DNA of 64,000 nt from Deltaproteobacteria bacterium (GCA_033763315.1 JANRKS010000002.1:384001-448000), one strand, 5' to 3'. Shown: positions 3,501 through 45,414, counted from the first letter of the stretch. Notes: generated by a model not told the origin, from the letters alone. Numbers and translations are program-made.

Positions 3501-3627
3501 TTGATGGATCCGCCTTCGCGACGATTTCGCGGCGGATTCAAGGACTTACGTGGCCAAGCTGGACCTGCAAGACGCAACTAATGACGAGCGGCGTGACTCA
3601 AGTTACGCAACCAACGCGCCGAGTTAC

Positions 3628-12387: not shown

Positions 12388-12420
12388 TAAATCTGCGGCC
12401 AATGCGGTTACACTGAGCGC

Positions 12421-22137: not shown

Positions 22138-22334
22138 AAGACCTCCAGAACCGCAAAGGAGAGCCAACTGGCGCAAACGCCGCGTTCTAACGCGGCATCA
22201 GTAGGCGTAATTTACCTCAGATAAGGCCCATAAGTACTAGGAGATTAGTTCTATGTAGTGGTGTTTTCAGGAGAAGGGCGGATCTGGTAGGGCTTGCGGC
22301 GTGGCTTCTCGTCCTCCATACAGCCTGCCACTCG

Positions 22335-27330: not shown

Positions 27331-27437
27331 GGCCGGCACATTACGCGCGCCACAGAAAATTCGTCAACGTTCCAACGATCTAGTTCAAGCGGCTTTATGC
27401 GGATTTTTCCCCGGCGACCGTGATCTGGCGCCCACCA

Positions 27438-28919: not shown

Positions 28920-28991
28920 TAGTGGCAGCACTCTAGCGCGTGCGGGCCCATTCGCCCAGCGTGAGGCGTGTGGCTGTGGAGTCACCGCGGG

Positions 28992-29969
28992 TTACGAGCA
29001 GCCGATGCGCTTGCTGCCGACGGCGACGTCGTCATACCAAGCGCGGCCCATTTGGCCGCTGAAATTCTGACCACCGATTTTCAGGAATTTATACGCAGGT
29101 GACCAGCCCGTGCGACCCTGCTTCCAGTCGCTCACGTTCATCGTGGCCTGTTCTTTGTCGTCGATCCACAGGTGAAACTGATGGTTCTTGCCATCAAAGT
29201 GAGCTTCGATGCAGTACCAGCGGCCCGCTTCGAGCACCACGCCGCCGGTGTCGCGCGGGATGTCGACGTCACCGTTCGAGAATTGCGTTTTCTCTCCGCC
29301 GCCGCTGCCCTTGTTGCCTGGGATCAAATTAACGTCGACGATGCCGTGGCTGGCCCCCAAGCGTAGCTCTTCGCCGGCGTCCGTTTCAGATTCAGCCCCT
29401 TCGATGAAATCCACGTGCCCGCCCATATCTTTGGTGGACTTTTCAAGCCGCATAAACACGCGCACAAAGAAGCTGTTGTCCACGGGAGGGAAGCCCATGG
29501 CGGCGATTAGATGTGACCCATAGCTTGCCGCCGTGACCGTTACGCTGTGGGGCGGGCTGTGGCTCTGGGTGGAAACGATCTTGTTGCGATCGTTTTGCCA
29601 CGCGGGTTGAGGCACCCAGAACGGCGCCGCGGGTTCGCTGTTGGCGGCCGCCTTGTCGAAATTGTCGCAGAACAACACACCTTGGCCCGTGCAGCCGCTC
29701 CCGCTGCCAGCGCCGCCCGCGTTGCTACCTCCCGTGCCCATACCGCCGGCGTTTGCGCCGCCCGTGTGGCTGTTGCCCCCGCTGGAGCCACCGTTGGCGT
29801 TGCCCGCGTTGCCGCCTTGGCCGCCACTGGCGACAGAGCCCGCGCCGCCACCACTGCCTCCTGAATAAGCGCCGCCATCTGACTTGGACGGGGGAGATGT
29901 GCCCGAGGCACAGGCGGCGGAGATAAGTATAAGAAGGCTGACGGTGGTGGGGCGCGTGACAAGCCGCAA
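28992..29969 (-). CDS. Lipoprotein with Gly-rich linker and Cip1-like/polysaccharide-lyase-like jelly-roll domain
   Basis: Lipobox SAAC; FCDNFD, FFVRVF, RWYCIE, WYDDVAVGSKRIGC. Confidence 0.65.
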   Translation of the reverse strand: MRLVTRPTTVSLLILISAACASGTSPPSKSDGGAYSGGSGGGAGSVASGGQGGNAGNANGGSSGGNSHTGGANAGGMGTGGSNAGGAGSGSGCTGQGVLFCDNFDKAAANSEPAAPFWVPQPAWQNDRNKIVSTQSHSPPHSVTVTAASYGSHLIAAMGFPPVDNSFFVRVFMRLEKSTKDMGGHVDFIEGAESETDAGEELRLGASHGIVDVNLIPGNKGSGGGEKTQFSNGDVDIPRDTGGVVLEAGRWYCIEAHFDGKNHQFHLWIDDKEQATMNVSDWKQGRTGWSPAYKFLKIGGQNFSGQMGRAWYDDVAVGSKRIGCS

Positions 29970-30079
29970 AGAGAAACCTCACCTTTACAACCCCAAGCCG
30001 CCCCAAGTTGAGAAATCGCGGCGCCGATCAATCGGGGGGCGTTGTTGGCGTGCCGAACCAATGGTCGTACACTCGCCGT

Positions 30080-31621
30080 ATGGTTCCCCAAGGAAGCGAC
30101 AGCTGCGCAATCGTGATCTTCGGTGCGTCTGGCGATCTCACAAAGCGAAAGCTGGTGCCCGCCCTGTTCGAGCTTTACTGCCAAGGCCATCTGCCGCACG
30201 GCTTCGCTGTGTTGGGCGTGGGCCGCACGGCGTATACCGATCAACAGTTTCAGCAAGCGCAGCGCGAGGCTCTGGTCACGTTCGCCAAACACGTGGGCAC
30301 CGATACCCAGCGCGACGCCTTCGTGGCCAAGCTGCACTACGAAAGCATCGACACCAGCCGCCGCGAGGAATACGCGCGCATTCGCACCCGCCTGTCGGGG
30401 CTGGACGAAACGGCCGGCACGGGCGGCAACTACTTGTTTTATTTGTCCACGCCGCCCGCCCTGGCCGTGCCGATCGTTTCGGGCCTGGGCGCTGAACACC
30501 TGCAGATCCCCTCACACCAAGGCTGCTGGCGCCGCCTCATCGTCGAAAAACCGTTTGGCACCGACCTGTCCTCCGCAACCGCTTTGAACGCGATGCTGCA
30601 GGCTGTGTTCAAGGAAGATCAAATCTTCCGCATCGATCACTATCTTGGCAAAGAGACGGTGCAAAACCTTCTCGTGTTTCGGTTTGCCAACGGCATCTTT
30701 GAGCCGCTGTGGAATCGCAACTATGTTGATTACGTCGAGGTCACCGCGGCCGAGAACATCGGCGTTGAAGATCGCGGTGGTTACTACGAGGGCAGCGGCG
30801 CCATGCGAGACATGGTGCAGAACCACCTGCTGCAAGTTGTGGGCATGATGGCCATGGAAGCGCCGTCGTCGTTCGACGCGCGCGCTGTGCGCAACGAAAC
30901 GCTCAAAGTGTTTCAGTCACTGCGGCCCATCACACCCGAAGAAGTTCATCTGCACACGATTCGTGGGCAATACACAGAGTCCAAGATCCGAGGCACGGCT
31001 GTGCCCGGGTACCGGCAGGAGAAGGGCGTGGATCCGGAATCACGCACAGAAACCTACGCCGCTGTGAGGTTCTATATCGACAACTGGCGGTGGGGCGGGG
31101 TTCCCTTCATCTTGCGCTCAGGTAAGCGGTTGCCCACCCGTGTTTCGGAGGTCGTGGTGCACTTTAAGCCCACGCCTCACCGCATCTTCGGCTCGATGAA
31201 CAGCGACGGAGGTTCCACGGCCAACTCGCTCATCATTCGCATTCAGCCCGACGAGGGCGTGGTGTTGAAGTTCGGCCTTAAGCGGCCGGGCTCAGGTTTC
31301 GAGGCGCGCAGCGTGGCAATGGACTTTCACTATTCCGACCTTTCGGACGTGCGGTTGCCTGAGGCTTACGAACGTTTGCTCCTGGACTGCATCCACGGCG
31401 ACGCCACGCTGTTCACGCGCGGTGACGCCGTGGAAGCGTGCTGGCAATTCGTGGATCCGATTCTGGAGGGGTGGAAGAACAACCCCGAATCCAAGGTTTA
31501 TGGCTACCCCGCGGGAACGTGGGGCCCGCCCGAAGCCGATAGGTTGCTGGGCGCTGACGGGCGCGCGTGGCGTCAACCGTGCAAGACCCTTTCAGAAAAC
31601 ACTGATTACTGCGAACTTTAA
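30080..31621 (+). CDS. zwf: Glucose-6-phosphate 1-dehydrogenase
   Basis: IFGASGDL, EKPFG, RIDHYLGKE, RDMVQNH, RWGGVPF. Confidence 0.98.
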   Translation: MVPQGSDSCAIVIFGASGDLTKRKLVPALFELYCQGHLPHGFAVLGVGRTAYTDQQFQQAQREALVTFAKHVGTDTQRDAFVAKLHYESIDTSRREEYARIRTRLSGLDETAGTGGNYLFYLSTPPALAVPIVSGLGAEHLQIPSHQGCWRRLIVEKPFGTDLSSATALNAMLQAVFKEDQIFRIDHYLGKETVQNLLVFRFANGIFEPLWNRNYVDYVEVTAAENIGVEDRGGYYEGSGAMRDMVQNHLLQVVGMMAMEAPSSFDARAVRNETLKVFQSLRPITPEEVHLHTIRGQYTESKIRGTAVPGYRQEKGVDPESRTETYAAVRFYIDNWRWGGVPFILRSGKRLPTRVSEVVVHFKPTPHRIFGSMNSDGGSTANSLIIRIQPDEGVVLKFGLKRPGSGFEARSVAMDFHYSDLSDVRLPEAYERLLLDCIHGDATLFTRGDAVEACWQFVDPILEGWKNNPESKVYGYPAGTWGPPEADRLLGADGRAWRQPCKTLSENTDYCEL

Positions 31622-31731
31622 GGTGTGCTTGGGCGCACCATTGGCGCGCCGCGCGTTTTACGGCTGATTTACTATGTGCCTTTCACGCCTGTGGCAGCAT
31701 CTTATAGGTACGTTTCTTTCAAGGAGATCAC

Positions 31732-31962
31732 ATGAAGACCCTCAATGTTCTGGGATTGGCGGCGGCGCTTTTGGTGGGCCCGTCGTTGTTTGTTGGCGCT
31801 GCTCAGGCCTGTGACGGCAAGGCTAAAAAGTCCTTGTCTTCTGAAACCGCCTGCGATGGCAAAGGCAAGAAGTCGTTCTCCGACTCCGTGTCCTGCGATG
31901 GCAAAGGCAAGAAGTCTCTCTCTGACGAGCTTAGCTGCGACGGCAAAGTGAAAAAGAGCTGA
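31732..31962 (+). CDS. Small secreted peptide made of four CDGKxKKS repeats
   Basis: AAGGAG RBS, signal peptide ending AQA, four cores on a 14-aa (42-bp) period, downstream terminator. Confidence 0.85.
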   Translation: MKTLNVLGLAAALLVGPSLFVGAAQACDGKAKKSLSSETACDGKGKKSFSDSVSCDGKGKKSLSDELSCDGKVKKS

Positions 31963-31995
31963 CCTCGTAGCTTGCGCTTCGTTGTTTGCTGATGG

Positions 31996-32028
31996 GGGCT
32001 GTGCTTCGTTGCGCGGCCCTTTTCTTTT
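31996..32028 (+). terminator. Intrinsic terminator
   Basis: GGGCTGTGC-ttcgtt-GCGCGGCCC stem (with GU pairs) followed by TTTTCTTTT. Confidence 0.7.
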
Positions 32029-32061
32029 GGGCATCGTGAGCCCATGCAGTAGCGTTGGTGG

Positions 32062-32271
32062 ATGAATCGATCTTCGGAGGCTCAACGCTGCCCGCTTTGT
32101 GAGCAAGCCAACGCGTGTGCGGTGGCCGCGGGGCGCGAGCCAGGGTCGTGTTGGTGCATGAGCGCGATGGCCGCACCGGGCGTCAAAGAGCGATTGGCTG
32201 CGACACCCGATCGGTGTGCCTGCCAACGCTGCTTCACCTCCGTGGCGCCAAGCGAGGTAGAGGCTACCTAA
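32062..32271 (+). CDS. Cysteine-rich CWC family protein
   Basis: CPLCEQANAC...CWC...CACQRC. Confidence 0.85.
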   Translation: MNRSSEAQRCPLCEQANACAVAAGREPGSCWCMSAMAAPGVKERLAATPDRCACQRCFTSVAPSEVEAT

Positions 32272-32749
32272 TTGGGCCGATGCCGAAATCGAGGCCGCTT
32301 TGGTCTCGGCGCACCTGTATAAGGCGCGCGTTGCCGGGATCGCTAAACGGCAACACAGTGCTGCCGTCATAATAGCCGCCCAGATCGCCTGAGCCGATTG
32401 TGCCGTCGCCATTGAGATCCACGCCCACAAAAAAACTGAACGCGTCGCCTGAGGCCAGCTGCTTTACCCGCCAAGACACACTACTGGTGTCGGCCGGTGC
32501 GGGCGCTTGGACCACTTCGTCAAAGACGCCGAGCGCGGAGGGGCGACCCACGGTGATGCCCAAGAACGCCTGTGCCCCCTTGGGTATCACAGTGGCGCTG
32601 CGCACGGTGCCCGTGACGGTGAGATAGCCCATGCGGTTTGGATCGCGGGGCGCCAGCGTCAAAGCCAGTTCGTCTGAAGTGGCGCCGCCTCCACAGGTGG
32701 CGGTGAACGTGGCGAACAACAGCAGGCAGCGCAAAACAGCCGTGGGCAT
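32264..32749 (-). CDS. Hypothetical lipoprotein with an EF-hand-like DxNxDG loop
   Basis: MPTAVLRCLLLFATFTATC signal; DLNGDGTIGSGD. The extension to 33160 is a shadow of the GH6 gene. Confidence 0.65.
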   Translation of the reverse strand: MPTAVLRCLLLFATFTATCGGGATSDELALTLAPRDPNRMGYLTVTGTVRSATVIPKGAQAFLGITVGRPSALGVFDEVVQAPAPADTSSVSWRVKQLASGDAFSFFVGVDLNGDGTIGSGDLGGYYDGSTVLPFSDPGNARLIQVRRDQSGLDFGIGPIR

Positions 32750-32828
32750 GATCACGCAGTTTACAACCTGCGTTGCGTTGTGGCGGTCCGTGTTTCCCGA
32801 TTCGGTGTGGCCTGCCGTTGATACGTTG

Positions 32829-33872
32829 ATGCAAATCCGCTCGCCCTCAAAACGTTTGTTGTGGATGGCCGCTTGCGCTCTGGTCGCAGCCCCCGGATGC
32901 CTTGGCAAGAAGACCGGCGCGGCCCCGGGGGTGCAATTGGTGCCCGACGACAACGCAAAGGCACCCACCGACAATCCCTTTGTCGGCGCCAAATATTGGA
33001 TCGATCCCGACAACGTCCCGAAAGGGTTGGCCCGGCGCTGGCGCAGCGATCGACCCGATGATGCGGCCTTGATGGACAAGCTGGCGGCGCAACCGTCGGC
33101 GATGTGGGTGGGGGATTGGGTGCCCGAAGTGGAGGGCTGGGTGATGCGCCAAACGCGCAAGCACGCCCGGGGCGGTTTCTTGCCGGTGTTCGTAGCCTAT
33201 AACATCCCCAAGCGCGACTGCGGCCAGTATTCCAAAGGCGGCGCGGACGCTGCCCCCGCTTATAAGGATTGGATTGCCAAGTTCGCGCGCGGCATCGGCA
33301 ATCGCAAAGCCGTGGTGATTCTTGAGCCCGACGCTTTGCCGCTGATGGACAAGTGTTTGGACGCCAACGACCAAAAGGAACGCTTGGCCTTGATCAGGTG
33401 GGCTGTGGGTGTGTTCGCTGGCCTCGGCAACACGTATGTGTATCTGGATGCGGGACACTCCGATTGGGTGCCTGCAGATGAAATGGCCAAGCGCCTGATG
33501 CAAGCGGGTGTGGATCACGCCACCGGATTCGCGTTGAACGTTTCTAACTACAAGAGCAACGAAGATCTCATAGCGTTTGGCTCCAAAATTTCAGGTGCCA
33601 CAGGCGGCAAGCCTTTCATCATCGATACCAGCCGCAATGGCAACGGCCCACCCGAAGCCACGGGCGACACCGAAGCCTCGTGGTGCAACCCGCGCGGCCG
33701 CGCGATCGGGTCGTCCCCCACAACGGAAACGGGCAACCCGTTGGTGCACGCGTTCTTCTGGATCAAAAAGCCGGGCGAATCAGACGGCGAGTGCAATGGT
33801 GGGCCCAAGGCCGGCCAGTGGTGGACGGAGATCGCACTTGAACTGGCGAAAGGCCCTGCGGCCAAGCCGTAA
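32829..33872 (+). CDS. Glycoside hydrolase family 6 (cellulase) lipoprotein
   Basis: YNIPKRDC, ILEPDAL, YLDAGHSDW, NVSNY, IDTSRNG, WCNP, KPGESDG; lipobox APGC. Confidence 0.93.
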   Translation: MQIRSPSKRLLWMAACALVAAPGCLGKKTGAAPGVQLVPDDNAKAPTDNPFVGAKYWIDPDNVPKGLARRWRSDRPDDAALMDKLAAQPSAMWVGDWVPEVEGWVMRQTRKHARGGFLPVFVAYNIPKRDCGQYSKGGADAAPAYKDWIAKFARGIGNRKAVVILEPDALPLMDKCLDANDQKERLALIRWAVGVFAGLGNTYVYLDAGHSDWVPADEMAKRLMQAGVDHATGFALNVSNYKSNEDLIAFGSKISGATGGKPFIIDTSRNGNGPPEATGDTEASWCNPRGRAIGSSPTTETGNPLVHAFFWIKKPGESDGECNGGPKAGQWWTEIALELAKGPAAKP

Positions 33873-33922: not shown

Positions 33923-34939
33923 GTGAGTGTTTTGCAGAGCCTTGGCTGGGGCCCGTTCTTTCAGTCGCAGATCAAAGTGCCGTTGCCGACGGGCGCGGAA
34001 GTGGCGCGCGTTGTGGAAGAGCAGAAGCGATATCATTTCGTTGCCACCGAACGCGGAGCGCTGTTGGCGCGCATCAATGGCAAACTTCGCCACGGCGCCG
34101 GTAGCCGCGCGCATTTACCATCCGTGGGCGATTTCGTGATCGTGCAGCCGCGCCACGAGGATGGCACCGCCACCATCACGCAGGTGTTGGAGCGGCGCTC
34201 AAAGTTGTCACGCAAAGAGCCTGGCACCGAAGACGAACAAGTCCTGTGCGCGAACGTTGACGTGGCGTTTGTGGTGCAAGGCCTCGATGGTGAGCCGAAC
34301 CTGCGCCGCCTCGAACGTTTCTTGGCCACCGCGGCGCGCGGCAACGTGAAAGCCGTGGTGGTTCTGACAAAAGCGGATTTGCGCACGCCGGATGATGTGC
34401 GTGCGCTTGTGGGTCAAGTGCAAGCGCTGGCGCCTTGCACCCCGGTGTTGGCGGTCAACGCACCGAATGCCGTGGGCCTGGACGACGTACGCACGCACTT
34501 GGGGCCGGGTGTGAGCGCCGTGGTGGTGGGGCCTTCAGGCGCGGGAAAATCAACGCTCTTGAACCATCTGGCTGGTCAGGATCTGCGCGCCGTTTCGCAA
34601 GTGAGGCAATGGGACAACAAGGGCCGGCACACCACCACCGCGCGCACTCTGTTCACGTTGGCCGATGGCACGCTGTTGATCGACACGCCGGGCATTCGCG
34701 AGATTGAACCTTGGGATGCCGCCCCGGGCTTGGACGAGGTGTTCGATGACATCAAACGCCTGTCAGCCGATTGCCGCTTCCGTGATTGCACACATCAAAA
34801 GGAACCTGGTTGCGTGGTGCGGGCCGCGGTAGATGCCGGTTCGCTGCCCCGCGATCGATACGAAGCGTTTATTAAGCTGCAAACCGAAGCGCGTTTGCAG
34901 CGCGAAAAACAATCGCCGTGGCTTAAGCCGCGCCGTTAA
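33923..34939 (+). CDS. rsgA: Ribosome small subunit-dependent GTPase A
   Basis: TKAD, GPSGAGKST, GRHTTT, DTPG, CRFRDCTHQKEPGC. Confidence 0.95.
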   Translation: MSVLQSLGWGPFFQSQIKVPLPTGAEVARVVEEQKRYHFVATERGALLARINGKLRHGAGSRAHLPSVGDFVIVQPRHEDGTATITQVLERRSKLSRKEPGTEDEQVLCANVDVAFVVQGLDGEPNLRRLERFLATAARGNVKAVVVLTKADLRTPDDVRALVGQVQALAPCTPVLAVNAPNAVGLDDVRTHLGPGVSAVVVGPSGAGKSTLLNHLAGQDLRAVSQVRQWDNKGRHTTTARTLFTLADGTLLIDTPGIREIEPWDAAPGLDEVFDDIKRLSADCRFRDCTHQKEPGCVVRAAVDAGSLPRDRYEAFIKLQTEARLQREKQSPWLKPRR

Positions 34940-36642
34940 AGCTTTCGGCCCGCGGTGGCGCGGTTGCCCCGAAACAAGCCGTCGTTGTCGCGATCCAAGA
35001 ATAAGGGGCTCGTGACCGCAAAGGCTGGCAATCCAGGCTCTTGCCCCGCTCGTGGTGGGCACTTGGGCGAGCCGTACTGAATGATTGCGTTGTATTCGCC
35101 GACGATCAACGGCGGCAACGGCAATTGGCTGTCAGTTTCAACGGTGACGAATGCATCTTCGTCGCCCAGGGCCAGCGACTCGTCAATTCTGAAATCGACG
35201 GCGCCACCGTTGCGAGGAATGGTCCACGTCTTTGCCACCGTTCCATTGACCAGCAGCCTCACAGTGTCCACGGTCACCCAGTTGGCGCCTTGCACACGAA
35301 TTGCAAGCGGCAGGGTTTGCGGCGCGTTCATCATGAAGTCACCTTCGACGAAAGCGCCGCTGCGAAGTGTGACGAGCGGCGCGTTCGAAGCGCTGGTGTG
35401 TCTGGCGCGGATCGCTTGGACCAAGAGTCCTGCGGAGAACCGCTTCAAGTTGTCGTCGCCCACGTTGATCCATGTGCGGGGATAGCCGGGCACCATCGCG
35501 GCTGTGTAATGTGAATCAGATCCGCCCACGGCCGCGGAGGTGAAGTTATATGATGCCAAGGCCAACCACGTCTCGGTGGCGTCGCGCATGCGCGTGCCAC
35601 ACGATTGCCAGCCGTTCAGCAATTCCGTGGCGTCGAAGTCTTGCGGACACGGTGGCGGTGCGGAAAAGTCGCGCTTGGCCCACGCACCACAGAAGCCTTC
35701 ATCGAAATACGCCTGCCACCCGAGGCGCGGGTGGTTAAGAACAACAATGGGTCGCCCCGGAATCGTGCGTAAATCCTGAAAGAACTGCGGCAGCGGCCAC
35801 GGGCGAACCACGGGCGCGCCCTTGCCCGGCTTCGCGGCGTCACGGACGATCGGAAAGAGTCCCCAGTGGGAATTCGTGCCTGATTTTTCTTCGCCGATCA
35901 CCGTCACCAAGGGCGCGGTGCCTTTCGGCCACAGCGACGCGACCACGGCGCCCAGGTCCGCGAGGGTGTCGTGATTGGCCCCGACTATGACGTCCAGTCC
36001 ATTCACCGCCGCCACCTTGAGTTGGCTGCCGCCCGTGGTGAATGCGTCAGGAGAATCAGGCGCCGCGTGCGTGTGCACGTCAGCGGACAGATATCCGGCA
36101 GAGTCGACGGTCCGCTTGAGCTCAACATCGAAGGCCACGTCGCCGCCTGCCGAAAGATCGGCTTGCAGCTCAACGGCGTCGTATTCCACGCCGCGCGAAA
36201 CTGTAATTTTGTAAAGCCCTGGCACGACTTGCGAGACGGTTTTCGCTGTGCCATTGACGTCCCGGTGTTCCCAAGGTTTGCCGGCGATGAATGTGCCTTC
36301 ACCTTTCCAAAGGGCCAGGCCGTGGCGAAAAGCGAACATGGCCTCGCCGCCCTTGCCTAGCTCAACCGCTGAGGCGCCTTGTGACCAGCCCGGCAGATCT
36401 GCAAAGTTGCCGAACGTCACGGGTTCTCCCGTGGCCGTGTGAAAGTTCACCAACGCTGGTATCAACTGCTTGGTGTCCGCGTCCCGCACGGTCAGTCGCA
36501 ACCGGCTTTGCGTCTTGTCCGCCGCATGCACGGTGGCGTCGCCCGAACATGACCCCTGCAAGCACGCCAATGCGGATACCCACAGCAGCGCCGCTGGGGC
36601 GAACACAAGCAAGGTCGCGAACACGGTTTGACGTTGTGTCAT
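34936..36642 (-). CDS. Exported PHP-fold metallohydrolase (CehA/McbA-like)
   Basis: SRGVEY, ADVHTH, ANHD, NHPR, ELLNG, GGSDSH, GYPRT; N-terminal signal. Confidence 0.8.
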   Translation of the reverse strand: MTQRQTVFATLLVFAPAALLWVSALACLQGSCSGDATVHAADKTQSRLRLTVRDADTKQLIPALVNFHTATGEPVTFGNFADLPGWSQGASAVELGKGGEAMFAFRHGLALWKGEGTFIAGKPWEHRDVNGTAKTVSQVVPGLYKITVSRGVEYDAVELQADLSAGGDVAFDVELKRTVDSAGYLSADVHTHAAPDSPDAFTTGGSQLKVAAVNGLDVIVGANHDTLADLGAVVASLWPKGTAPLVTVIGEEKSGTNSHWGLFPIVRDAAKPGKGAPVVRPWPLPQFFQDLRTIPGRPIVVLNHPRLGWQAYFDEGFCGAWAKRDFSAPPPCPQDFDATELLNGWQSCGTRMRDATETWLALASYNFTSAAVGGSDSHYTAAMVPGYPRTWINVGDDNLKRFSAGLLVQAIRARHTSASNAPLVTLRSGAFVEGDFMMNAPQTLPLAIRVQGANWVTVDTVRLLVNGTVAKTWTIPRNGGAVDFRIDESLALGDEDAFVTVETDSQLPLPPLIVGEYNAIIQYGSPKCPPRAGQEPGLPAFAVTSPLFLDRDNDGLFRGNRATAGRKL

Positions 36643-36798
36643 GAGGGGCCGAGGGGGCGCTTACAGGACCGACCCGCATGTTTTAGCAGAAGGCAAGGGC
36701 TGCCTGTTAACGTTGCGGTGACGTTTGCGTCCCTTTGCCCGAAACCTCACCGCGCTGGCGCGATGGATTCCAGCAAAAACCAAGGCTTACAGGGCGCC

Positions 36799-39768
36799 TC
36801 ACCGAAGCGTTTTGGGCTCGAGATCTCGTGAAAGGGACACCGAAGCGCCCGTCAGTGCGTCCACACTTACCGCCACGTCCAACTCTTTGCCACTGATCGA
36901 GCCGTGACAACCACCGCACACAGCGTTGAAAAGCTTCCGAGGCACACCGGGCGTGATCACTTCGCCGGGGCTCACTTGATGCTCCTCCGTCATCGTGAAC
37001 ACAGGTTTGCCCGCGCCATCCACCAACTCAAGAATCACGGCTTTGCCAACCGGCAACGTCACCTTCAGGGACCCATCTGTTTCAAGCGGGGCCGTACCCA
37101 AAGGCTTGCGCACTGAGTATACCTTTTCGGTGCCGCTCAGTTGCGCCGGATCGGTCACCGCGGTTGTGGGCGCTGTGACTTCGTACACGCGAAGCGCTTT
37201 GCCTTTGTCCATCGCGGCCACGTTTCTGCCGCGCCGCAAGTTAGAGCCCAGCAACGTCGCCAACATCGGCAGGTCGGGCAAGTGCATCACAGCGGCGGGG
37301 GCCTTGGGATCGAAGTGCCCACCGAAGACCAGTTGCGGAACGTTGTTGAACAGCTGCCGGCTCGCACGTTTATACCCAAGCGCAGCTTCAACCAAGGATT
37401 CCGCGCCGCCTGGCACCAAGGTTCGCTGCGCGTTCGTTGTGGGATCCACCAGAACCAAATCATACCGGGGCACATCGGCCGCGGGATCAGCGACGTTGGA
37501 TGCATAGCTCACCAAGATCTCGCCATTGGTCGTGGGGTAAGGCGAGCGGTATACGCCCTTGGTGCCAGCGCGCCCCGTGACAGCCGGGTTCACGAACGTC
37601 AAAGCCCGCAGGAATTGAGGCTCGCCGCGCCCTTCTTCGAAGGGACCCACCGAGCGGTTGAACAAGCCCAGCGCACCACCTGCGCCTTTGGCGGTTAAGT
37701 CGGACAACACCACCAAGAAGTTCCGGTCCAAGTCTTCGCGAATCTCGGTGGCCTGTGCGTATCCCACCGACGGTCGCATCTTTCCGAAGGTATCGTCCGA
37801 TTCTTTCCGTTGAGCGATGAGCGGGTGATAATCGCTGAGATCCCAATTGATGCGGCGGCCTGACACTTGATAAAAATCAGGCGTGGCCTTCTCTGCCGTG
37901 AACGACAGTTGACCGTTGGCCATGAAGGCCGGTGAAAGCTCCGAGTTTGTCAGGAACGTCATACGCTCAGGGGCTGCGAAATTCAGATCCGCGCCCACGC
38001 GGTAAAGATCCGCGTTTGGCAAAAAGCGCTTGAGCGTCAACGTGCCTGCGCGGGTGGACGAAAACACAATGGCACCGTTGGGCGCAAATACAGGATCGAA
38101 GTTGTGAACGCGCACGTCGCCAACCTTGCGGCCGGCGTCATTGGTCAAGCGCGTGCATGCGTTGGTGGCGAGATCCAGCATCCACAGATCCAAACCGACG
38201 TTCGCCCCGGGGCGCGCGGCGAACACCAATTTGCTGCCATCGAAGCTGAACTCAGGGCCACGCACGTCGAGCCCGGCGCCTGCCGTGAGCCCCACGCAGC
38301 CAGCAAGAGCGCTGCGCACGTTGTCCACCTTCTCAATGCGGCCCGCAGCGTCCATCGTGGCGTCGGCCAACTTGAGATCGGCGCCGCCGGCAAAAGTATC
38401 AAACTCAAGCAAACCGTCGGCGCTGGGTGGGCGAGAGACGAACGCCAGTGGCAAGCTGCTGCCAGTGGTAAAGGCCGACACATCTGCCTTGTGGGCTTCG
38501 CGTTCCAGTGTGTGCCACTGCACCAACGTACAAAAGGCCGTGGCGGTTTCGGCGTTGAACGGCGAAGGGCAGGGCTTGGTGACATCTTCGTTCGGGCTCT
38601 CGAACAGAGAGCCGCCGCGATGAGCGATGCCGCCGTTGGAGGGGAAGATGTTCTTACGCACCAACCGAGACATCCGCACGTCCGGTGAATCGAGCGACAC
38701 AAACTCACGTAGGGCCGTCTCGTAGTTGCGTCGGATGGCAAACGTCGACATAAAGCCAAGCGCACCAGGCCGCAACCGGAAGTCATTAAACCCGTTGGGG
38801 CTGTGACACGCTTCAAGCGAGCAGCCGCGCCGAATCAGAACCGGCATCACGTTGTCGCCAAAGAAGGCTTCAGCGGGAGTGCGCGCCGCCAGCTCCACGG
38901 GGGCTTTTTGCACGAGGTCCGCAAAGGCGCGTAGCTTCTTCCAGGTGTCATCGCCCGTTGAAGAGAAGAAAGCGCCACCTGTGTGGTTCACGCCGCCGCC
39001 TTTGGGGTCAAGCGGGCGCAGCAAAAGTTCGCTTTGTTCCACGGCACGCCCCGCGGGGGCCACGAAGCTAGAAATGCGCAAGAAGTTGAAGTCCTTCTGC
39101 TCGTCGGTGTCGCCACAAGTGACGTAAAAGTCGGATTGGGGCGAGCCATGGCACGTGCTGTATGAGCATGAGGCGCGCACAAACGGCTGCACATCTGTTG
39201 CGTAGGCCTTGTAGCTCGCGCTGTTGCGATCCACCATGGGCCGTGTTTCGTCGGCCGGCACAGTGCTGTTGCAACCTCCCGACCCCTGGCGCCGATCTCT
39301 GTTTTCGGGCAAACCGGTTCGCGAAGCGCCGTTCGACAACCACCGCTTAAGCAGCTCGAAGGCATCCGAATTGCGCGTGAGCGGTTTGCCACCGGCGTGC
39401 CTAATCTCGCTGGTGAACGTTTTGCCACCAAACGGAATGAACGTGGTTTCCTCGGGGATCGCTTTGAGCAGCATCAAGGGCTCAGGGTACGAGCCGTACG
39501 TGCGCAGCACATCGGGACGTTGGCGCACCGCCTCGAACGATGACAAGTCTAAGTTGCCAAGCGCCGTGCCGGTGGCCGGGTCAATCTTGTGGCACGGGGA
39601 TGTGTTGCCCACGCAGAACGAATTGAACACCGGTTGAATCTGGGTGTCGTAGAACCGGTTTTCCGGAACGGCCGCGCGTTCGCAGGCGCCAAGCGGAAGC
39701 AGGGCCGCGAACGTCAGCCACCGCACATGAGAAGCAAAACGCCGAACTTGGAAGGGCACGTCGCTCAT
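36799..39768 (-). CDS. Lipoprotein with three atypical c-heme modules, a TolB-like propeller and an HzsA-like domain with CxxCH
   Basis: Lipobox LGAC; CVGNTSPCH, CSYSTCH, CSLEACH, each followed by HxGG; FSFDGSKLVFAAR; LETDGSL...CGGCH. Confidence 0.8.
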   Translation of the reverse strand: MSDVPFQVRRFASHVRWLTFAALLPLGACERAAVPENRFYDTQIQPVFNSFCVGNTSPCHKIDPATGTALGNLDLSSFEAVRQRPDVLRTYGSYPEPLMLLKAIPEETTFIPFGGKTFTSEIRHAGGKPLTRNSDAFELLKRWLSNGASRTGLPENRDRRQGSGGCNSTVPADETRPMVDRNSASYKAYATDVQPFVRASCSYSTCHGSPQSDFYVTCGDTDEQKDFNFLRISSFVAPAGRAVEQSELLLRPLDPKGGGVNHTGGAFFSSTGDDTWKKLRAFADLVQKAPVELAARTPAEAFFGDNVMPVLIRRGCSLEACHSPNGFNDFRLRPGALGFMSTFAIRRNYETALREFVSLDSPDVRMSRLVRKNIFPSNGGIAHRGGSLFESPNEDVTKPCPSPFNAETATAFCTLVQWHTLEREAHKADVSAFTTGSSLPLAFVSRPPSADGLLEFDTFAGGADLKLADATMDAAGRIEKVDNVRSALAGCVGLTAGAGLDVRGPEFSFDGSKLVFAARPGANVGLDLWMLDLATNACTRLTNDAGRKVGDVRVHNFDPVFAPNGAIVFSSTRAGTLTLKRFLPNADLYRVGADLNFAAPERMTFLTNSELSPAFMANGQLSFTAEKATPDFYQVSGRRINWDLSDYHPLIAQRKESDDTFGKMRPSVGYAQATEIREDLDRNFLVVLSDLTAKGAGGALGLFNRSVGPFEEGRGEPQFLRALTFVNPAVTGRAGTKGVYRSPYPTTNGEILVSYASNVADPAADVPRYDLVLVDPTTNAQRTLVPGGAESLVEAALGYKRASRQLFNNVPQLVFGGHFDPKAPAAVMHLPDLPMLATLLGSNLRRGRNVAAMDKGKALRVYEVTAPTTAVTDPAQLSGTEKVYSVRKPLGTAPLETDGSLKVTLPVGKAVILELVDGAGKPVFTMTEEHQVSPGEVITPGVPRKLFNAVCGGCHGSISGKELDVAVSVDALTGASVSLSRDLEPKTLR

Positions 39769-39784
39769 TGTAATCGGAGGTTTC

Positions 39785-39813
39785 GCCCCTCGCCCGCAGA
39801 AGTCGCGAGGGGC
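39785..39813. repeat. Intergenic 9-bp perfect inverted repeat
   Basis: GCCCCTCGC...GCGAGGGGC between the HEAT gene and the multiheme gene; no clear U-tract on the coding strand. Confidence 0.6.
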
Positions 39814-39850
39814 TGTGGGCGTATGTACTCAAACGCGAGGTTCGCGGTCG

Positions 39851-40726
39851 CTACGGTGCCAGCTTCGCCAGCGCAGCGGTGGCCAACGAGCGCACGAACG
39901 GATTCGTGTCCTGGCTGGCCGCGCGCTCAAGCGCAGGGCCTGCAATCGAAGCCGAAGCGTGAATCTCGCCCAGCGCCCAGGCGGCCTTCTTGCGAACCAG
40001 ATCACTCGGATCATTTCCAACCAAGTGGCTCAGTTGTTCAGCGGCGTCGCGGGCAGAAGGTGACGCTTGCGCCGCCGAACGCGTGGCGGCCACCGAGTAG
40101 ATCGCCTCAACGCGCACCTTTTCGTCGCTGTCTGTAAGCAAACCAACGGCGAGCGTTGGATCATTGTAGCCCCGCAGCTTGCGCAAGCTTTCCGCCGCCG
40201 CGGCTCGCACCGCAGGTTCACGCGCCTTCATGGCGTCGCCCAGCGCCGACAATCCTTCCATGTCGCCAATCTCCCCCAAAGCGTGGGCCATTGCCGCACG
40301 CGCTTCATCGTTGAAGATGGGGTTGTTCAAAGCTGCGCCCAGGGGCTTGATGCTTTTGTAGGCACGCATTTCACCCAAAACATCGGCGGCGTTGCGCGCG
40401 AGCTTCGAATCGGGCTGAGACAGACGTTGCAACATTTGCAGTGACATTTCCGAACGCAGGCCGCGCCGTGACAGCCACCACGCCGCCACCTTACGCACGC
40501 GCGTGTCTTCATGGTCCACCAATGGCAGCACCATTTGCACGCATGCATGGCACACCAAAGTTTCCGATCGCTCAAGCTCTGCCTCGATGGATTCAACCGA
40601 GCCTGAACCTATCGCCCGCTGGATCGCACCGGGGCTTGAACCGCGGCCAGCGAAAGCCGGTTCTGCGCACAAACCCAACAGCAACGCAGAGGCAACGAAA
40701 GACGTCTTCATGGTCGTAAACTTCAT
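39851..40726 (-). CDS. Secreted HEAT-repeat protein with a CxxC motif
   Basis: Signal peptide ending AFA; VCHACV; repeats VRKVAAWWL, AAHALGEIG-like, VRKKAAWALGEI. Confidence 0.85.
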   Translation of the reverse strand: MKFTTMKTSFVASALLLGLCAEPAFAGRGSSPGAIQRAIGSGSVESIEAELERSETLVCHACVQMVLPLVDHEDTRVRKVAAWWLSRRGLRSEMSLQMLQRLSQPDSKLARNAADVLGEMRAYKSIKPLGAALNNPIFNDEARAAMAHALGEIGDMEGLSALGDAMKAREPAVRAAAAESLRKLRGYNDPTLAVGLLTDSDEKVRVEAIYSVAATRSAAQASPSARDAAEQLSHLVGNDPSDLVRKKAAWALGEIHASASIAGPALERAASQDTNPFVRSLATAALAKLAP

Positions 40727-40728
40727 GG

Positions 40729-42912
40729 CTAGTAATCTCCCCTCTTGTTCTCACGGAAGAAGAACTGCCCGCCCATGTCGATGTTGAGGATCAGGCGGTA
40801 GTATTCGTCGGGCGTTAGCTCTTTGCCCCCGACGTCGGCAGGGTGAGACGCGCCTGGGAATGCGCGCACGGCCGCGTTCACGTCAGGAAAACGCTGCGGT
40901 GGGTTCAACTTCTTAATGATGTTGGAGCTGCGAGCTTCACCCGGTTTCATGTGTTCTTTGTAGTCGCCCACAATCTGAACAACGTTTTCACCGAGCTCCA
41001 TGCCGAGACCTACGACTGAAATGTAGGAGGCCGGGAAGCCTGTGCCAGCCGAGCGCTCGCCCACCACGATGGCCACCTTTTGCCCACGCAGATCAAAGGT
41101 AACCGTTTGTTGGGTGCCCAAGGTTTTGTCGATGATGGTGTATGTGCTGTTGCCTGGCTTGCTGGCGTCGCCGTCGTGGCACGAAACGCACTTGGCGTCG
41201 AAGATGGGTTGTATGGCCAGATCCCAAGGCACGCCGCGAATCTTGTCGTAGCTGAAGTCCATCGATTCGCGTTGTGGCCGTGGCACATCCAAATCCACGG
41301 GGCCGCGTTGCACAGCTTCGATAGTGCCGGGCTTGATCTCGGTGGTCTTCGAGCGGCTCTCGTGGCAACCACCGCAGAAGCGCTGCTCGCCGGGGCGGCC
41401 GCTGATCCACACGTCTTCGCCAGCCACCGCCAAGCCAAACTTATCAACCAACTGTTGATGCAACGGCACGTTGGCAGGAACTTTGGCGGCGAACGAACCA
41501 TCGGCCAAGACGGGAACCTCGCCGTAACGAGATTGACCATCGAACTCGGTCAGGCCGAACATGTTCGGGAAACCTTCTTCGGACGAGAAGCCTTCCATCA
41601 GGCGCACCTTCACCACGCTGCCGGGCTCAATTTTCGTCACTGAGGATTCGTATACGTTCAAAGCGCCCAGGATGAAGCTCTTCTCGTTCTGCGCCACCGG
41701 GCTTTGTGCGGGTGGTGGCTCAACGCGAGGCTTGATGGGGCGCGCGGCCACGTCCCAATAGGCAGGGTCATCCCACACAGGGAAACGTTTTCCGGTTTTG
41801 CCGTCCAATACGTAGATGCCGAAATCGGCCTTGGTTTTGGCTTCCTCCAAGATCTCTGATTGCACGGGGCCATCTGCCCACGACACAAGAAATTTCAGGT
41901 CCGCCGCGGGGCCAATGGGCTCGGCGTCGTAAAAGCGACCGATGCCTTTTTCAGAGCGCTCTTTGTCACCAGGCACAAGCGGCGTGAGATCGGTAACCTT
42001 GGATGAAGCCTCGTCGTCATTCAGATCGACCAGCAAAACCTTGCCGGCTTGCAACGTTCGGTCGCGCGAGGTGCCGATGGCCACGAGCCGCGACGCCTTC
42101 TTTCCGGCCGCCGTCATGTAGCTGGTCACGAAGCGCGCTTTGAGGTAGCTGTTGGTGACGCCCTTGCCTTCACCACCGAATGCCTCGCGCATGCCCGTCA
42201 TATCGGTGTTCATCACGCGCAAGTGACCGTCGTTGATGCCACCCAGATGTCGCCATTCGGTGAACACGACGTTGCCATCTTCAAGCAAGGCGGGCGCCAC
42301 GCGGTGAGACACGTTACGCGGCCCAAGCACTTCGTTCGTGCCGTCCATGTTGATGACGCCCACCTGTGATGTGGTGGCGCGTTCATATTCGTCGCGGAAC
42401 TGCTGGGAGCCCTCTTCAACCACCTTGCTGGTGGTAAAAAGGATCTTTTGTCCCGGCACAAAGATCGGATACACGTAGTGGTCGGGGCCATCTGTGATCT
42501 GCCGTGGGTTGCTGCCATCCACGTTGATTAAAAACAACTGATAGTTGCCTTCGTTCGCGAGGCGAGCCGAGAACACGATCGTTTTGGCATCGAACGAAAG
42601 GTCCCAAGCCATCACATCTGCGTCCTTGAACATAGGGGCGGCGGTTAGGTTCACCAGCTTGCCGTCAGCCGAAGGCGGCGAGAGCTTGACGAGGCGGCCG
42701 CCGGGTTTGTAGTCGGTGTAGTCGAAGACGTTGCCCGTCCCGCTGCGCGCTGTTCGCTGCAGGAAAACGATTGAATCAACGTCCGTCGGCAGGCCTACCG
42801 CTCCCCCTGTGGCGCCGTCGCTGCTCGATGAGCGGCAGCCGCTCAGGCTTGCCAAGCCACCACCAAGCGCCCAGAGGCTGCCAATCACCCATGCTGCTTT
42901 GCGCATCATCAT
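40729..42912 (-). CDS. HzsA (hydrazine synthase alpha)-related lipoprotein with two CxxCH motifs
   Basis: Lipobox LSGC; LSFDAKTIVFSAR propeller; GEVPVLADGSFAAKVPANVP...RPGEQRFCGGCHE; IQPIFDAKCVSCH. Confidence 0.85.
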   Translation of the reverse strand: MMMRKAAWVIGSLWALGGGLASLSGCRSSSSDGATGGAVGLPTDVDSIVFLQRTARSGTGNVFDYTDYKPGGRLVKLSPPSADGKLVNLTAAPMFKDADVMAWDLSFDAKTIVFSARLANEGNYQLFLINVDGSNPRQITDGPDHYVYPIFVPGQKILFTTSKVVEEGSQQFRDEYERATTSQVGVINMDGTNEVLGPRNVSHRVAPALLEDGNVVFTEWRHLGGINDGHLRVMNTDMTGMREAFGGEGKGVTNSYLKARFVTSYMTAAGKKASRLVAIGTSRDRTLQAGKVLLVDLNDDEASSKVTDLTPLVPGDKERSEKGIGRFYDAEPIGPAADLKFLVSWADGPVQSEILEEAKTKADFGIYVLDGKTGKRFPVWDDPAYWDVAARPIKPRVEPPPAQSPVAQNEKSFILGALNVYESSVTKIEPGSVVKVRLMEGFSSEEGFPNMFGLTEFDGQSRYGEVPVLADGSFAAKVPANVPLHQQLVDKFGLAVAGEDVWISGRPGEQRFCGGCHESRSKTTEIKPGTIEAVQRGPVDLDVPRPQRESMDFSYDKIRGVPWDLAIQPIFDAKCVSCHDGDASKPGNSTYTIIDKTLGTQQTVTFDLRGQKVAIVVGERSAGTGFPASYISVVGLGMELGENVVQIVGDYKEHMKPGEARSSNIIKKLNPPQRFPDVNAAVRAFPGASHPADVGGKELTPDEYYRLILNIDMGGQFFFRENKRGDY

Positions 42913-43183
42913 GCCAGGGGCTTCTGCAAGAAGGCGACCAACTCCAACAGCCAGAGACAACGAGGCCTGATTCGCCGCGAATGTGCGAAAACCCCGGAAA
43001 ATAGACGGGGTCCTTTGCGGGAGCCGGCGGCGCGTATCCTACCTTCCTTACCCTTCCCGACGGCCGGAGTTGCGTCACTTGCCGCCAGTGACGCTGCGGC
43101 TGGTGAATCATGAGCGCGGCGTTGACCAGTGCACGAAGCCTGGCGCGGTTGGGGTGAACCCGTGGCAAACTAGGCTCTCGACG

Positions 43184-44629
43184 TTGTCTACACCGCCAGA
43201 TCCCCACACCCCGCAGAAGTTAGGTCGTTACCAGCTGCTTGAACGCATCGCTGTGGGCGGCATGGCGGAAGTGTACAAGGCGGTGGCGCTGGGGCTGTCG
43301 GGCTTCGAAAAAACCGTGGTCGTCAAACGCCTGTTGCCCCAGCACCAGCGCGATCAAGAGCTGCTCACCATGTTTGTGGATGAAGCTCGTTTGCTCGGGC
43401 GTTTGCGACATCCCAACATCGCTGAGGTCTATGATATCGACCACGAAGGCAACGAGTACTTCTTTGCCCTCGAATACGTGGATGGCGTTGAGCTGCGCGA
43501 TCTTCTCAACGACACGCCGGGCATCCCGCTTTCAGATGAAGAAGCCGTGTGGATCACCTGCGAACTTGCAAAGGCGCTCGCCTACGCACACGGCTTGCTT
43601 GATGACGAGGGCCAACCGCTTGGCATTGTCCATCGCGACATCTCCCCCTCCAACGTGCTTATCGGCCAAACGGGTGCGGTCAAGTTGGTGGATTTCGGCG
43701 TGGCCAAATGGCGATCGCAGCGAAGCGAAACGCGACACGGCGTGCTCAAGGGCAAAGTCAGCTACATGTCGCCGGAGCAGTGTCGGGGCGAGCCGCTTGA
43801 TTCGCGCAGTGACGTGTTTGCTTTGGGCGTGTTGCTATACGAGATGACGGTGGGCAGCCGGCCGTTCGCGCGCACTTCAGATTTCGAAACGCTCAAGGCC
43901 ATCGCCGAGGGCCATTTCATCAAGCCTTCGGTCAAACGTCCCGGCTATCCAGCGCCCCTTGAGCGGTTGTGCGTGGCGATGATGGAGCTTGATCGCTCGC
44001 AGCGGCCCACTGACATGCGGGAAGTCGTTGCTGCTCTGCAGGACTACGCGGCCAGCGCGGGCATCGCGTTGGGGCCGCAAACACTCGCCGCACGTGCCGC
44101 CAAAGCGGTGACTCTTAGAGAGCCTCGAACACCAACGGGAGAAAGCCACGAAGAGCCGCATTTCGCTCAGGCCATTCGATTCCCCGTTGACCGCACGGCC
44201 ACCGCGGTGGCCACGGTTGAATCGTTGGTGACCGCCGTGACGCCGATGCCCGAATCTACGTCAGCGGTTGCCCCCCATAGCCGCCGTAGGCTCAAGCTTT
44301 CCGTCGGTGTGGGCGCCGTGGCAGCGGGCGCGGCGCTCATCTTGTTTTGGCTGCGGCCCGTGACCCCTATGCAGACCGAAACCGCGACCGCGACCCGGAG
44401 CGCACCGGTGGAGGTGCCTCAACCCGCCCCCGTGGTGAAAGCCGCAGAGCCCGTGGCCATGGATCCACCGGCGGCCGTGATTCAGCGCAAACGCTCCACT
44501 GTGATCAAGGATGTGAACACGCGCCCCCGACAGAATCAACCTTCGCAAGAGTCGTCGCCCCGAGCGGCTTCTTCAGGCCTGACAGGATCGGCGGCTGTGT
44601 GGGATCCAGATTCGCCTGTCCCGCCTTAG
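43184..44629 (+). CDS. Hanks-type Ser/Thr protein kinase, membrane anchored
   Basis: GGMAEVY, VVKR, HRDISPSN, DFG, YMSPEQ, SDVFALG, then a TM helix and Pro-rich tail. Start uncertain. Confidence 0.95.
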   Translation: MSTPPDPHTPQKLGRYQLLERIAVGGMAEVYKAVALGLSGFEKTVVVKRLLPQHQRDQELLTMFVDEARLLGRLRHPNIAEVYDIDHEGNEYFFALEYVDGVELRDLLNDTPGIPLSDEEAVWITCELAKALAYAHGLLDDEGQPLGIVHRDISPSNVLIGQTGAVKLVDFGVAKWRSQRSETRHGVLKGKVSYMSPEQCRGEPLDSRSDVFALGVLLYEMTVGSRPFARTSDFETLKAIAEGHFIKPSVKRPGYPAPLERLCVAMMELDRSQRPTDMREVVAALQDYAASAGIALGPQTLAARAAKAVTLREPRTPTGESHEEPHFAQAIRFPVDRTATAVATVESLVTAVTPMPESTSAVAPHSRRRLKLSVGVGAVAAGAALILFWLRPVTPMQTETATATRSAPVEVPQPAPVVKAAEPVAMDPPAAVIQRKRSTVIKDVNTRPRQNQPSQESSPRAASSGLTGSAAVWDPDSPVPP

Positions 44630-44676
44630 GCATTCATGGTGGCGCTGGCTGATGCGTGCGTGCGCACGGTTCTGTT

Positions 44677-45414
44677 ATGATGCGGGTCTTGTTTTTGATT
44701 CAGGTCCACAATCGGCTCTTTTGGTGTGCGAGTCTGTGTTGTGTGGCGCTGCTGGTCGCGCAGCCGCGCGCTGACGCGCAAGCTGCCGAGCCTGCCATCC
44801 CCCTGAACAAAGCGAAGGAGCTTTACGACGCCGGCCTGGCCGACTTCAAAGCGCAAAAGTACGACACGGCGGTGTCGCTGCTGTCGCAAAGTTTTGCTTT
44901 GGATCCACAAGCGCAGACGCTGTTTGCGTGGGCGCAGTCTGAGCGTTTGCGTTTTCATTGCGACGAAGCGGCGCGGTTGTTCGATCAGTTCATCGCAATG
45001 AACCCACCTGCTCGTCAAGTGGCCGCTGCAGAGCTTGCGAAGCGAAGGTGCACGCCTGCGCCTGCTGTGGTGTCGACGCCGACGGTAGCCGTTCCCCCTC
45101 CACCCGCTGTCATTGTGCGCGCGCCATTGTGGTATCGAGACGCGTGGGGTGGGGCGTTGTGCGGTTTGGGTGCGGCCACCACCGCGGCTGGGCTTGCATT
45201 GGTGGTCAACGCGCATGCCCTGGCGGGGCAAGCCGAAGGCGCCGAAACGTTGGGCCAATCACAATCCGATCGACGGGTCGCCGAGCAACGATGGGCGTGG
45301 GGCATTGGCATGACGCTCGTGGGTGCAGCGCTGTTCGCGGGCGGTGTCGCTCGCTATGTGTGGGTGTCTAAAGCAGACGATCGCATGACCGTGTCCACAG
45401 GGGGAAACTTCTAG
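44677..45414 (+). CDS. TPR protein with C-terminal membrane segments
   Basis: Signal peptide, TPR (LFAWAQSER), Pro linker, PLWYRD followed by two hydrophobic segments. Confidence 0.75.
   Translation: MMRVLFLIQVHNRLFWCASLCCVALLVAQPRADAQAAEPAIPLNKAKELYDAGLADFKAQKYDTAVSLLSQSFALDPQAQTLFAWAQSERLRFHCDEAARLFDQFIAMNPPARQVAAAELAKRRCTPAPAVVSTPTVAVPPPPAVIVRAPLWYRDAWGGALCGLGAATTAAGLALVVNAHALAGQAEGAETLGQSQSDRRVAEQRWAWGIGMTLVGAALFAGGVARYVWVSKADDRMTVSTGGNF

Follow-up and report, generated by a model that had tools for sequence, protein, structure and literature searches.

We analysed a 64,000-nucleotide stretch of the genome of a Deltaproteobacteria bacterium (GCA_033763315.1, JANRKS010000002.1:384001-448000; hereafter the window) and found in it three adjacent genes, all on the minus strand, that encode two lipoproteins related to HzsA, the alpha subunit of hydrazine synthase, with an exported HEAT-repeat protein between them. 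We refer to the genes and their products as P1, HEAT and P3, and to the set as the triad. The two lipoproteins are paralogs, they carry six Cys-His motifs between them that are conserved together with the gene order across a bacterial class, and on balance we favor reading the triad as a three-part periplasmic redox module with six haems that would act on a small substrate.

P1 (40729-42912) starts with ATG and encodes a 727-residue lipoprotein with two CxxCH motifs. HEAT (39851-40726) encodes a 291-residue protein with a signal peptide and PBS-type HEAT repeats, and P3 (36799-39768) a 989-residue lipoprotein with one CX6CH, two CX4CH and one CxxCH motif. The gap between P1 and HEAT is 2 bp, so that the HEAT ATG begins 2 bp past the P1 stop codon, with the sequence GGGGAG upstream of it, and the gap between HEAT and P3 is 82 bp. 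A model that had seen the DNA alone had described three co-directional genes with these gaps and a hydrolase gene 156 bp further on, and had called the lipoproteins, the HEAT repeats, the signal peptide and the motifs (this we call the original prediction); our open reading frame (ORF) listing, translation and family scans agree with that description. P1 and P3 were the only HZS_alpha matches in a six-frame search of the whole 7.6-Mb genome. A promoter and terminator scan of positions 34700-43300 was uninformative, with no promoter-like site and five terminator-like sites against 12.1 expected, and PADLOC returned weak generic HEAT matches and nothing relevant. A look-up in sequencing runs listed three DNA runs with small shares (0.07-0.12) of the sampled words, and no RNA run.

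P1 is a full-length relative of HzsA

Translation of P1 gives an N-terminus that begins MMMRK and runs into a lipobox (LSGC, followed by R), of which Cys26 is kept in at least 90% of 36 aligned homologs. The domain order is a six-bladed TolB-like propeller, the HZS_alpha middle domain and a C-terminal cytochrome domain. One motif, CGGCH (41362-41376, minus strand), lies in the middle domain at a site of the haem alpha-I type, and the other, CVSCH (41176-41190, minus strand), lies in the C-terminal cytochrome domain at a site of the alpha-II type. As reference we used HzsA of 'Candidatus Kuenenia stuttgartiensis' (PDB 5C2V/5C2W chain A). P1 scored 54.6 bits against the Pfam family HZS_alpha (PF18582; gathering threshold 26.6 bits), and its sequence matched 5c2v_A with an E-value of 1.1e-10, or 4.8e-19 when a profile of the 36 homologs was used. 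The alignment consists of collinear segments that together span the propeller and middle domain as well as the CxxCH of alpha-I and that of alpha-II.

The AlphaFold2 (AF2) model of P1 (predicted local distance difference test, pLDDT, 80.5; predicted template-modeling score, pTM, 0.77) led to the same protein. Its top match in Foldseek was 5c2v_A, with an E-value of 2.8e-28, template-modeling (TM) scores of 0.62/0.59 and 840 aligned columns at 18% identity, and TolB came next at about 5e-10, matching the propeller only. Against the TolB equivalog TIGR02800, P1 reached 20.5 bits where the cut-off is 343, and what it has in common with TolB is the propeller fold only.

P3 is a paralog with three cytochrome-like modules at its N-terminus

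P3 also begins with a lipobox (LGAC, followed by E), and its C29 is kept among orthologs. The six-bladed propeller occupies residues ~430-805 and is followed by the HZS_alpha middle domain, which ends in an alpha-I-type CGGCH (36904-36918, minus strand). P3 scored 26.3 bits against HZS_alpha by hmmscan but passed the cut-off in the six-frame search of the genome, with 30.4 bits, and it scored 21.6 bits against PD40. Alignment of the P1 family with the P3 family by hhalign, across 449 columns that run from the propeller to the CxxCH, gave a probability of 99.5% and an E-value of 1.4e-22, and the P3 profile matched 5c2v_A with an E-value of 1.5e-12. By these comparisons P3 is a distant paralog of P1. 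The AF2 model of P3 (pLDDT 88.9, pTM 0.88) matched 5c2v_A in Foldseek with an E-value of 4.8e-22 over 625 columns (TMt 0.49), in the propeller and middle domain only. The P3 propeller (residues 432-801) also superposed on TolB, with a VIA Z-score of 27.3 and a root-mean-square deviation of 3.1 over 266 residues; P3 scored 25.4 bits against TIGR02800, with its cut-off of 343. The chain stops ~35 residues past the CxxCH, and P3 therefore has no C-terminal haem domain. These matches by profile and fold, together with those of P1 to HZS_alpha and 5c2v_A, uphold the proposal that the two lipoproteins are HzsA-like paralogs.

Upstream of the propeller, the remaining three motifs of P3 stand in three modules that are mostly helical in the AF2 model. 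Translation places CX6CH (CVGNTSPCH) of module 1 at 39589-39615, CX4CH (CSYSTCH) of module 2 at 39148-39168 and CX4CH (CSLEACH) of module 3 at 38803-38823, all on the minus strand. Every module has a helix leading into its Cys-Xn-Cys-His motif, and ~60 residues downstream there is a conserved His in an H-x-G-G context (H124, H262 and H383). All three of these are invariant in the closer P3 alignments. In a 41-sequence P3 alignment reaching down to 25% identity, the Cys, Cys and His of both CX4CH motifs and of the CxxCH were invariant, as were H262 and H383. CX4CH is listed among the known haem c motifs (PMC11492766).

Homology between modules 2 and 3 is clear (hhalign 98.1%, E-value 9e-14). 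Module 1 is weakly related to both (69-78%), and likewise weakly to the cytochrome domain at the P1 C-terminus (85% over 18 columns) and the alpha-II motif region of HzsA. Searches with the modules in the ESM Atlas gave leads only, to clusters labelled 'cytochrome c domain' with scores of 0.89 and TM-scores below 0.5, and a wide VIA search with the whole P3 model was filled by propeller matches, over residues 430-805.

The HEAT protein

The hydrophobic N-terminus of the HEAT protein ends in AFA, followed by G, and A26 and G27 hardly vary among 40 orthologs. The protein matched the Pfam family HEAT_2 with an E-value of 1.5e-26. The solved sequences nearest to its profile were designed alphaRep proteins, then deoxyhypusine hydroxylase (1.6e-22), the bilin lyase pair CpcE/CpcF (PDB 5n3u_A, 1.3e-14; 5n3u_B, 2e-11) and YibA. 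It scored 37 and 32 bits against the NCBIfam NblB/CpcE equivalogs (NF058502 and NF045915), for which the cut-offs are 300-330 bits, and it fell far short of every other NCBIfam equivalog cut-off as well. By sequence, then, it is a generic PBS-type HEAT-repeat protein. It has the repeat type in common with PBS-lyase-type HEAT proteins (CpcE/CpcF, NblB, YibA, deoxyhypusine hydroxylase); what sets it apart from these is its export, a CxxC pair, the invariant WW (W83, W84) and the location of its gene between those of two putative haem lipoproteins. The Cys pair, CHAC in the window (40541-40552, minus strand), is mostly conserved, being CxxC in 57 of 65 orthologs, CxxxC in four and absent in four.

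Among the three longer homologs of P1 that we found, two (the metagenome proteins P0271 and P0272) are natural fusions of HEAT and HzsA-like sequences, in which N-terminal HEAT repeats are followed by a CBM6/35 or F5/8-type-C module, a PD40 propeller and an HZS_alpha domain with one CxxCH. These fusions, and the fixed gene order with its 2-bp gap and GGGGAG, tie the HEAT protein to the putative haem proteins. A literature search for exported HEAT proteins associated with c-type cytochromes found nothing relevant.

The triad is conserved in Polyangia-type Myxococcota

Of 18 genomes from the same family, 14 had a strong P1 match, as did 3 of 12 from other families in the class, and the order P1-HEAT-P3 was seen in 13/13 relatives' loci. 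One of these loci (L026) is cut by its contig end, and at another (L024) the P1 gene is spread over several frames; given that the latter stands in a 3.3-Mb contig record, its frame breaks may be sequencing errors. We then searched with P3, taking one genome per species, which gave 499 relatives confirmed by tblastn, and kept the best 80 loci. Sixty of these 80 had at least 3300 nt upstream of P3, and P1 and HEAT lay there on the same strand in 59, the exception being L105. By label, the loci come from Polyangia, Myxococcales, Kofleriaceae, Haliangium and Nannocystaceae metagenome-assembled genomes (MAGs). By these searches the triad is confined to one class, Polyangia-type Myxococcota. The original prediction had raised conservation of a three- or four-gene order across Myxococcota; the three-gene order is borne out within these genomes, and the four-gene order with the hydrolase is not.

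The motifs are conserved as sets. Among orthologs spanning 42-65% identity, the P3 pattern of CX6CH, CX4CH, CX4CH and CxxCH was kept in 69 of 71 sequences and the P1 pattern of two CxxCH in 55 of 57, and because the patterns recur in this way, the Cys-His motifs cannot be put down to chance. All six of the haem motifs counted in the original prediction, which had allowed for up to six haems, are therefore retained. The genome has cytochrome c maturation genes (three Cytochrom_C_asm matches), so that conserved CXnCH motifs, exported proteins and maturation genes, the sequence features by which c-type cytochromes are recognized, are all present.

At four of the loci a conserved exported ORF of ~300 residues follows P3 on the same strand (L078:10023-10928, L089:10099-10941, L093:10178-11143 and L098:9993-11069). 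The loci come from a Kofleriaceae, a Nannocystaceae, a Nannocystineae and an uncultured delta proteobacterium MAG. The ORF matched no Pfam family, contains no CxxCH and has no counterpart in the window.

Relatives in other classes are single chains

P3 matches with E-values of 1e-20 or lower were found in 34 of 201 genomes of the phylum, and were full-length in the same class only. Matches in other Myxococcota classes begin near residue 185-245 of P3, at 28-33% identity. Nine loci from these classes (L108-L116) hold ten P3-like proteins, and all ten are single chains. Each has two N-terminal CX4CH motifs and a propeller, after which a CxxCH is followed ~67 residues on by another motif, a C-terminal CX2-4CH. 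CX6CH occurs in one of the ten, and none has a HEAT or P1 neighbor. At L114 there are two single-chain copies ~9 kb apart on opposite strands.

In contrast to P3, these relatives keep the C-terminal CX2-4CH domain in the same polypeptide, and nine of the ten are without the CX6CH module. Since other-class relatives combine these domains in single chains, the triad looks like a duplicated and divided form of that architecture. The simplest reading of the sequences is that a single-chain ancestor was duplicated in the Polyangia lineage, after which P1 would have kept the alpha-I and alpha-II sites, and P3 the N-terminal modules and an alpha-I site.

Comparison with hydrazine synthase and its homologs

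HzsA and P1 have in common the propeller, the HZS_alpha middle domain with the CxxCH of haem alpha-I, and a C-terminal domain with the CxxCH of haem alpha-II. HzsA and P3 share the propeller, the middle domain and the alpha-I CxxCH, and differ in that P3 has N-terminal CXnCH modules and no C-terminal haem domain. Unlike hydrazine synthase, P1 and P3 are lipoproteins, and two alpha-type paralogs are present in place of alpha plus beta-gamma. No HzsB- or HzsC-like (beta or gamma) gene was detected among the 48 ORFs of the window scanned with Pfam, and none of the seven CCP_MauG matches in the genome lies on the window's contig. The absence of an hzsB/hzsC partner from the window had been noted in the original prediction, and these scans concur.

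Against the NCBIfam hydrazine_alpha equivalog (NF052339; cut-off 800 bits), P1 scored 87.7 bits and P3 11.1 bits. We also compared the residues around the catalytic haem, mapping the HzsA residue numbers (Tyr591, with Ser590 beside it) from Hagglund et al. (2025; PMC12758564) on the assumption of a 27-residue offset. In the profile alignment, CSGCHYGSY of HzsA stands opposite CGGCHEDRA of the P1 family. The position of the haem ligand Tyr591, four residues after the His of the CxxCH, is Ser521 in P1, where it varies within the family, and Ser959 in P3. In HzsA, haem alpha-II is bis-His ligated, with His772 as distal ligand; around this residue the alignment to P1 is weak (2.6 bits), and H690, which is nearly invariant, stands five columns away. 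From the lack of a beta-gamma partner, an equivalog score of 87.7 against 800 bits and the absence of Tyr from the ligand position, we conclude that the triad does not encode a hydrazine synthase.

Distant homologs of HzsA, numbering in the hundreds, have been described outside anammox bacteria, in clades I-IV of Planctomycetota, Desulfobacterota and others (Hagglund et al., 2025; PMC12758564). In the clusters of that paper, the neighbor of the alpha homolog is a beta-gamma homolog in fused form, and an FG-GAP/CRTAC1 gene is often present too; the homologs have a canonical haem alpha-I pocket without the Tyr and Ser of HzsA and no assigned function. Myxococcota and Polyangia proteins appear in its supplementary hit tables, and the terms 'Myxococc', 'Polyangi' and 'HEAT' do not occur in its main text. 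In the triad, the alpha-type protein is accompanied by HEAT and by another paralog of the alpha type rather than by a fused beta-gamma protein, so that it falls outside the clusters as that text defines them. The claim of an undescribed system in the original prediction was overstated as to the family, which is already known, in print and named in Pfam; its statement that HzsA-related proteins outside anammox bacteria have no assigned function agrees with the paper's text. The arrangement of two alpha-type genes around HEAT, the division of haem domains between paralogs and the CX4CH/CX6CH modules are not described in the text of PMC12758564.

Neighboring genes

An exported 568-residue metallohydrolase of the CehA/McbA family is encoded on the minus strand downstream of P3 (34936-36642). 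It scored 95.4 bits against the NCBIfam model CehA_McbA_metalo (NF038032; cut-off 80), aligning with profile positions 1-314 of 315, and matched no Pfam PHP model; its 'PHP' label follows how the CehA/McbA family is described. The original prediction had made this enzyme part of the operon. Downstream of P3, it was found in one of the 13 relatives' loci, that of the same genus (L015), and in none of the 80 wider loci, which places it outside the conserved unit.

On the other side and divergent from P1, Pfam scans identified genes for a Ser/Thr kinase, a TPR protein and a 771-residue RCC1-repeat protein (42983-47729, plus strand). This set stands beside the triad in 10 of the 13 relatives' loci, and in 29 of the 80 wider loci, all of closer relatives, P1 has a kinase gene immediately upstream, in the opposite orientation. 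The synteny is thus limited to closer Polyangia relatives, and any functional link to the triad is hypothetical. Kinases near distant loci were considered as orthologs of the window kinase and rejected, as they match in the kinase domain alone, at 30-39% identity.

The window otherwise contains glycan-degrading, repair and regulatory genes. Genes for a GH28 enzyme, a polysaccharide-lyase-like protein and a GH6 enzyme, with a glucose-6-phosphate dehydrogenase gene among them, lie a short way upstream, at positions 25615-33872. Separately, we noted a 566-residue protein with a bacterial-like globin domain and DUF4394 (56288-57988, minus strand), and a 515-residue HXXSHH (DUF1552) protein (20629-22176, minus strand) of a family known from planctomycete-type exported proteins. 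A co-directional run on the plus strand (3550-13044) comprises genes for large TPR proteins and for an outer-membrane beta-barrel protein, together with three ORFs that match no family.

Proposed function and alternative explanations

Starting from the observed homology, paralogy, export signals, motif conservation and gene order, we propose that P1 and P3 are membrane-anchored, diverged paralogs of HzsA, each with a CxxCH matching that of the catalytic haem alpha-I. We infer that all six motifs would bind haem covalently and that P1, HEAT and P3 would form a catalytic complex acting on a small substrate. The two alpha-I-type haems may serve as sites for a small soluble redox substrate other than ammonium plus hydroxylamine, while the other four haems would pass electrons. 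To these P1 would contribute an electron-transfer haem of the alpha-II type, and P3, having probably lost the C-terminal haem domain, three N-terminal cytochrome-like modules instead. The soluble HEAT protein, which may be translationally coupled to P1, could serve the pair as an adaptor or as an assembly subunit, keeping it together or maturing it. A bolder form of this proposal, which we put forward tentatively and would not be surprised to see fail, is that the triad represents a periplasmic haem enzyme of a new type, in which two HzsA-type catalytic subunits derived from a divided ancestor and held by HEAT replace the alpha/beta-gamma arrangement, and in which P3 brings in an uncatalogued family of cytochrome c domains that includes a CX6CH site.

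Several observations weigh against the proposed six-haem module. The hmmscan score of P3 (26.3 bits) falls slightly below the HZS_alpha cut-off of 26.6. The N-terminal modules of P3 matched no Pfam family, with no cytochrome family at an E-value of 1 or lower in any of 24 members, and no solved structure by sequence, as a profile of 24 module sequences gave a single chance match among PDB sequences, with an E-value of 0.99. CX6CH is not in the list of haem motifs given in PMC11492766, and the X6 loop was modelled at a pLDDT below 50. The Cys pair of the HEAT protein cannot serve an essential chemistry, as it is absent in 4 of 65 orthologs. Finally, the operon lacks a gene for an electron donor, quinol dehydrogenase or acceptor, and Pfam scans found no respiratory or nitrogen-cycle genes in the 64-kb window.

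Part of this evidence could be read differently for the HEAT protein, which might be a dedicated maturation factor, similar to a lyase or chaperone, that presents the CX4CH and CX6CH motifs of P3 to the haem attachment machinery and is not a subunit. The resemblance of its profile to CpcE/CpcF, the weak NblB/CpcE matches, the Cys pair in 61 of 65 orthologs and the position of its gene between those of two putative haem proteins would fit such a role. Its equivalog scores, however, are far under the 300-330 bits of the bilin lyase families, its profile matches PBS-type HEAT proteins of any kind, with alphaRep and deoxyhypusine hydroxylase scoring higher than CpcE/CpcF, and the Cys pair is absent from four orthologs. 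Moreover, the ten distant CX4CH proteins have no HEAT neighbor, and the fusion proteins P0271 and P0272 have canonical CxxCH only. We therefore regard a role in maturation alone as unlikely. Somewhat less likely still is that P1 and P3 are structural or binding lipoproteins of the envelope with TolB-like propellers, in which the Cys-His motifs would serve metal binding or disulfides and no redox catalysis would take place. Such a role would agree with the superposition of the P3 propeller on TolB (Z 27.3), the lipid anchors predicted for both proteins and the lack of an electron-transfer partner in the operon; yet for both models HzsA is a better match than TolB and extends over far more of the chain, every Cys-Cys-His triplet is kept with fixed spacing class-wide, and the CxxCH sites align to the haem sites of HzsA.

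Two further explanations would extend or rename the system, and we consider both highly improbable. A four-gene operon that would have the PHP-type hydrolase acting together with the haem proteins is suggested by the export of the hydrolase, its orientation on the same strand 156 bp downstream and its recurrence in the same genus, but is hard to reconcile with its absence downstream of P3 from 12 of the 13 relatives' loci and 80 of the 80 wider ones. That the triad is a cryptic hydrazine synthase or another anammox-like nitrogen enzyme is the least credible of all; the HzsA fold and both haem sites are indeed shared, but the equivalog score is far below the cut-off (87.7 against 800 bits), the beta-gamma partner is missing, Ser occupies the Tyr position, and the window holds no nitrogen-cycle genes. 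The six-haem redox module is thus the reading that we retain.

To our knowledge, hydrazine synthase was long held to have no relatives; its HzsA fold is now seen to be widespread, and we know of no relative whose function has been established. The triad offers a compact test case that has been kept across a bacterial class, with two alpha-type paralogs, one small partner and no beta-gamma. It also brings to light a cytochrome-like domain with CX4CH, and apparently unreported CX6CH, motifs that is unannotated and common in Myxococcota. If these motifs bind haem, motif-based censuses of multihaem cytochromes would undercount such proteins.

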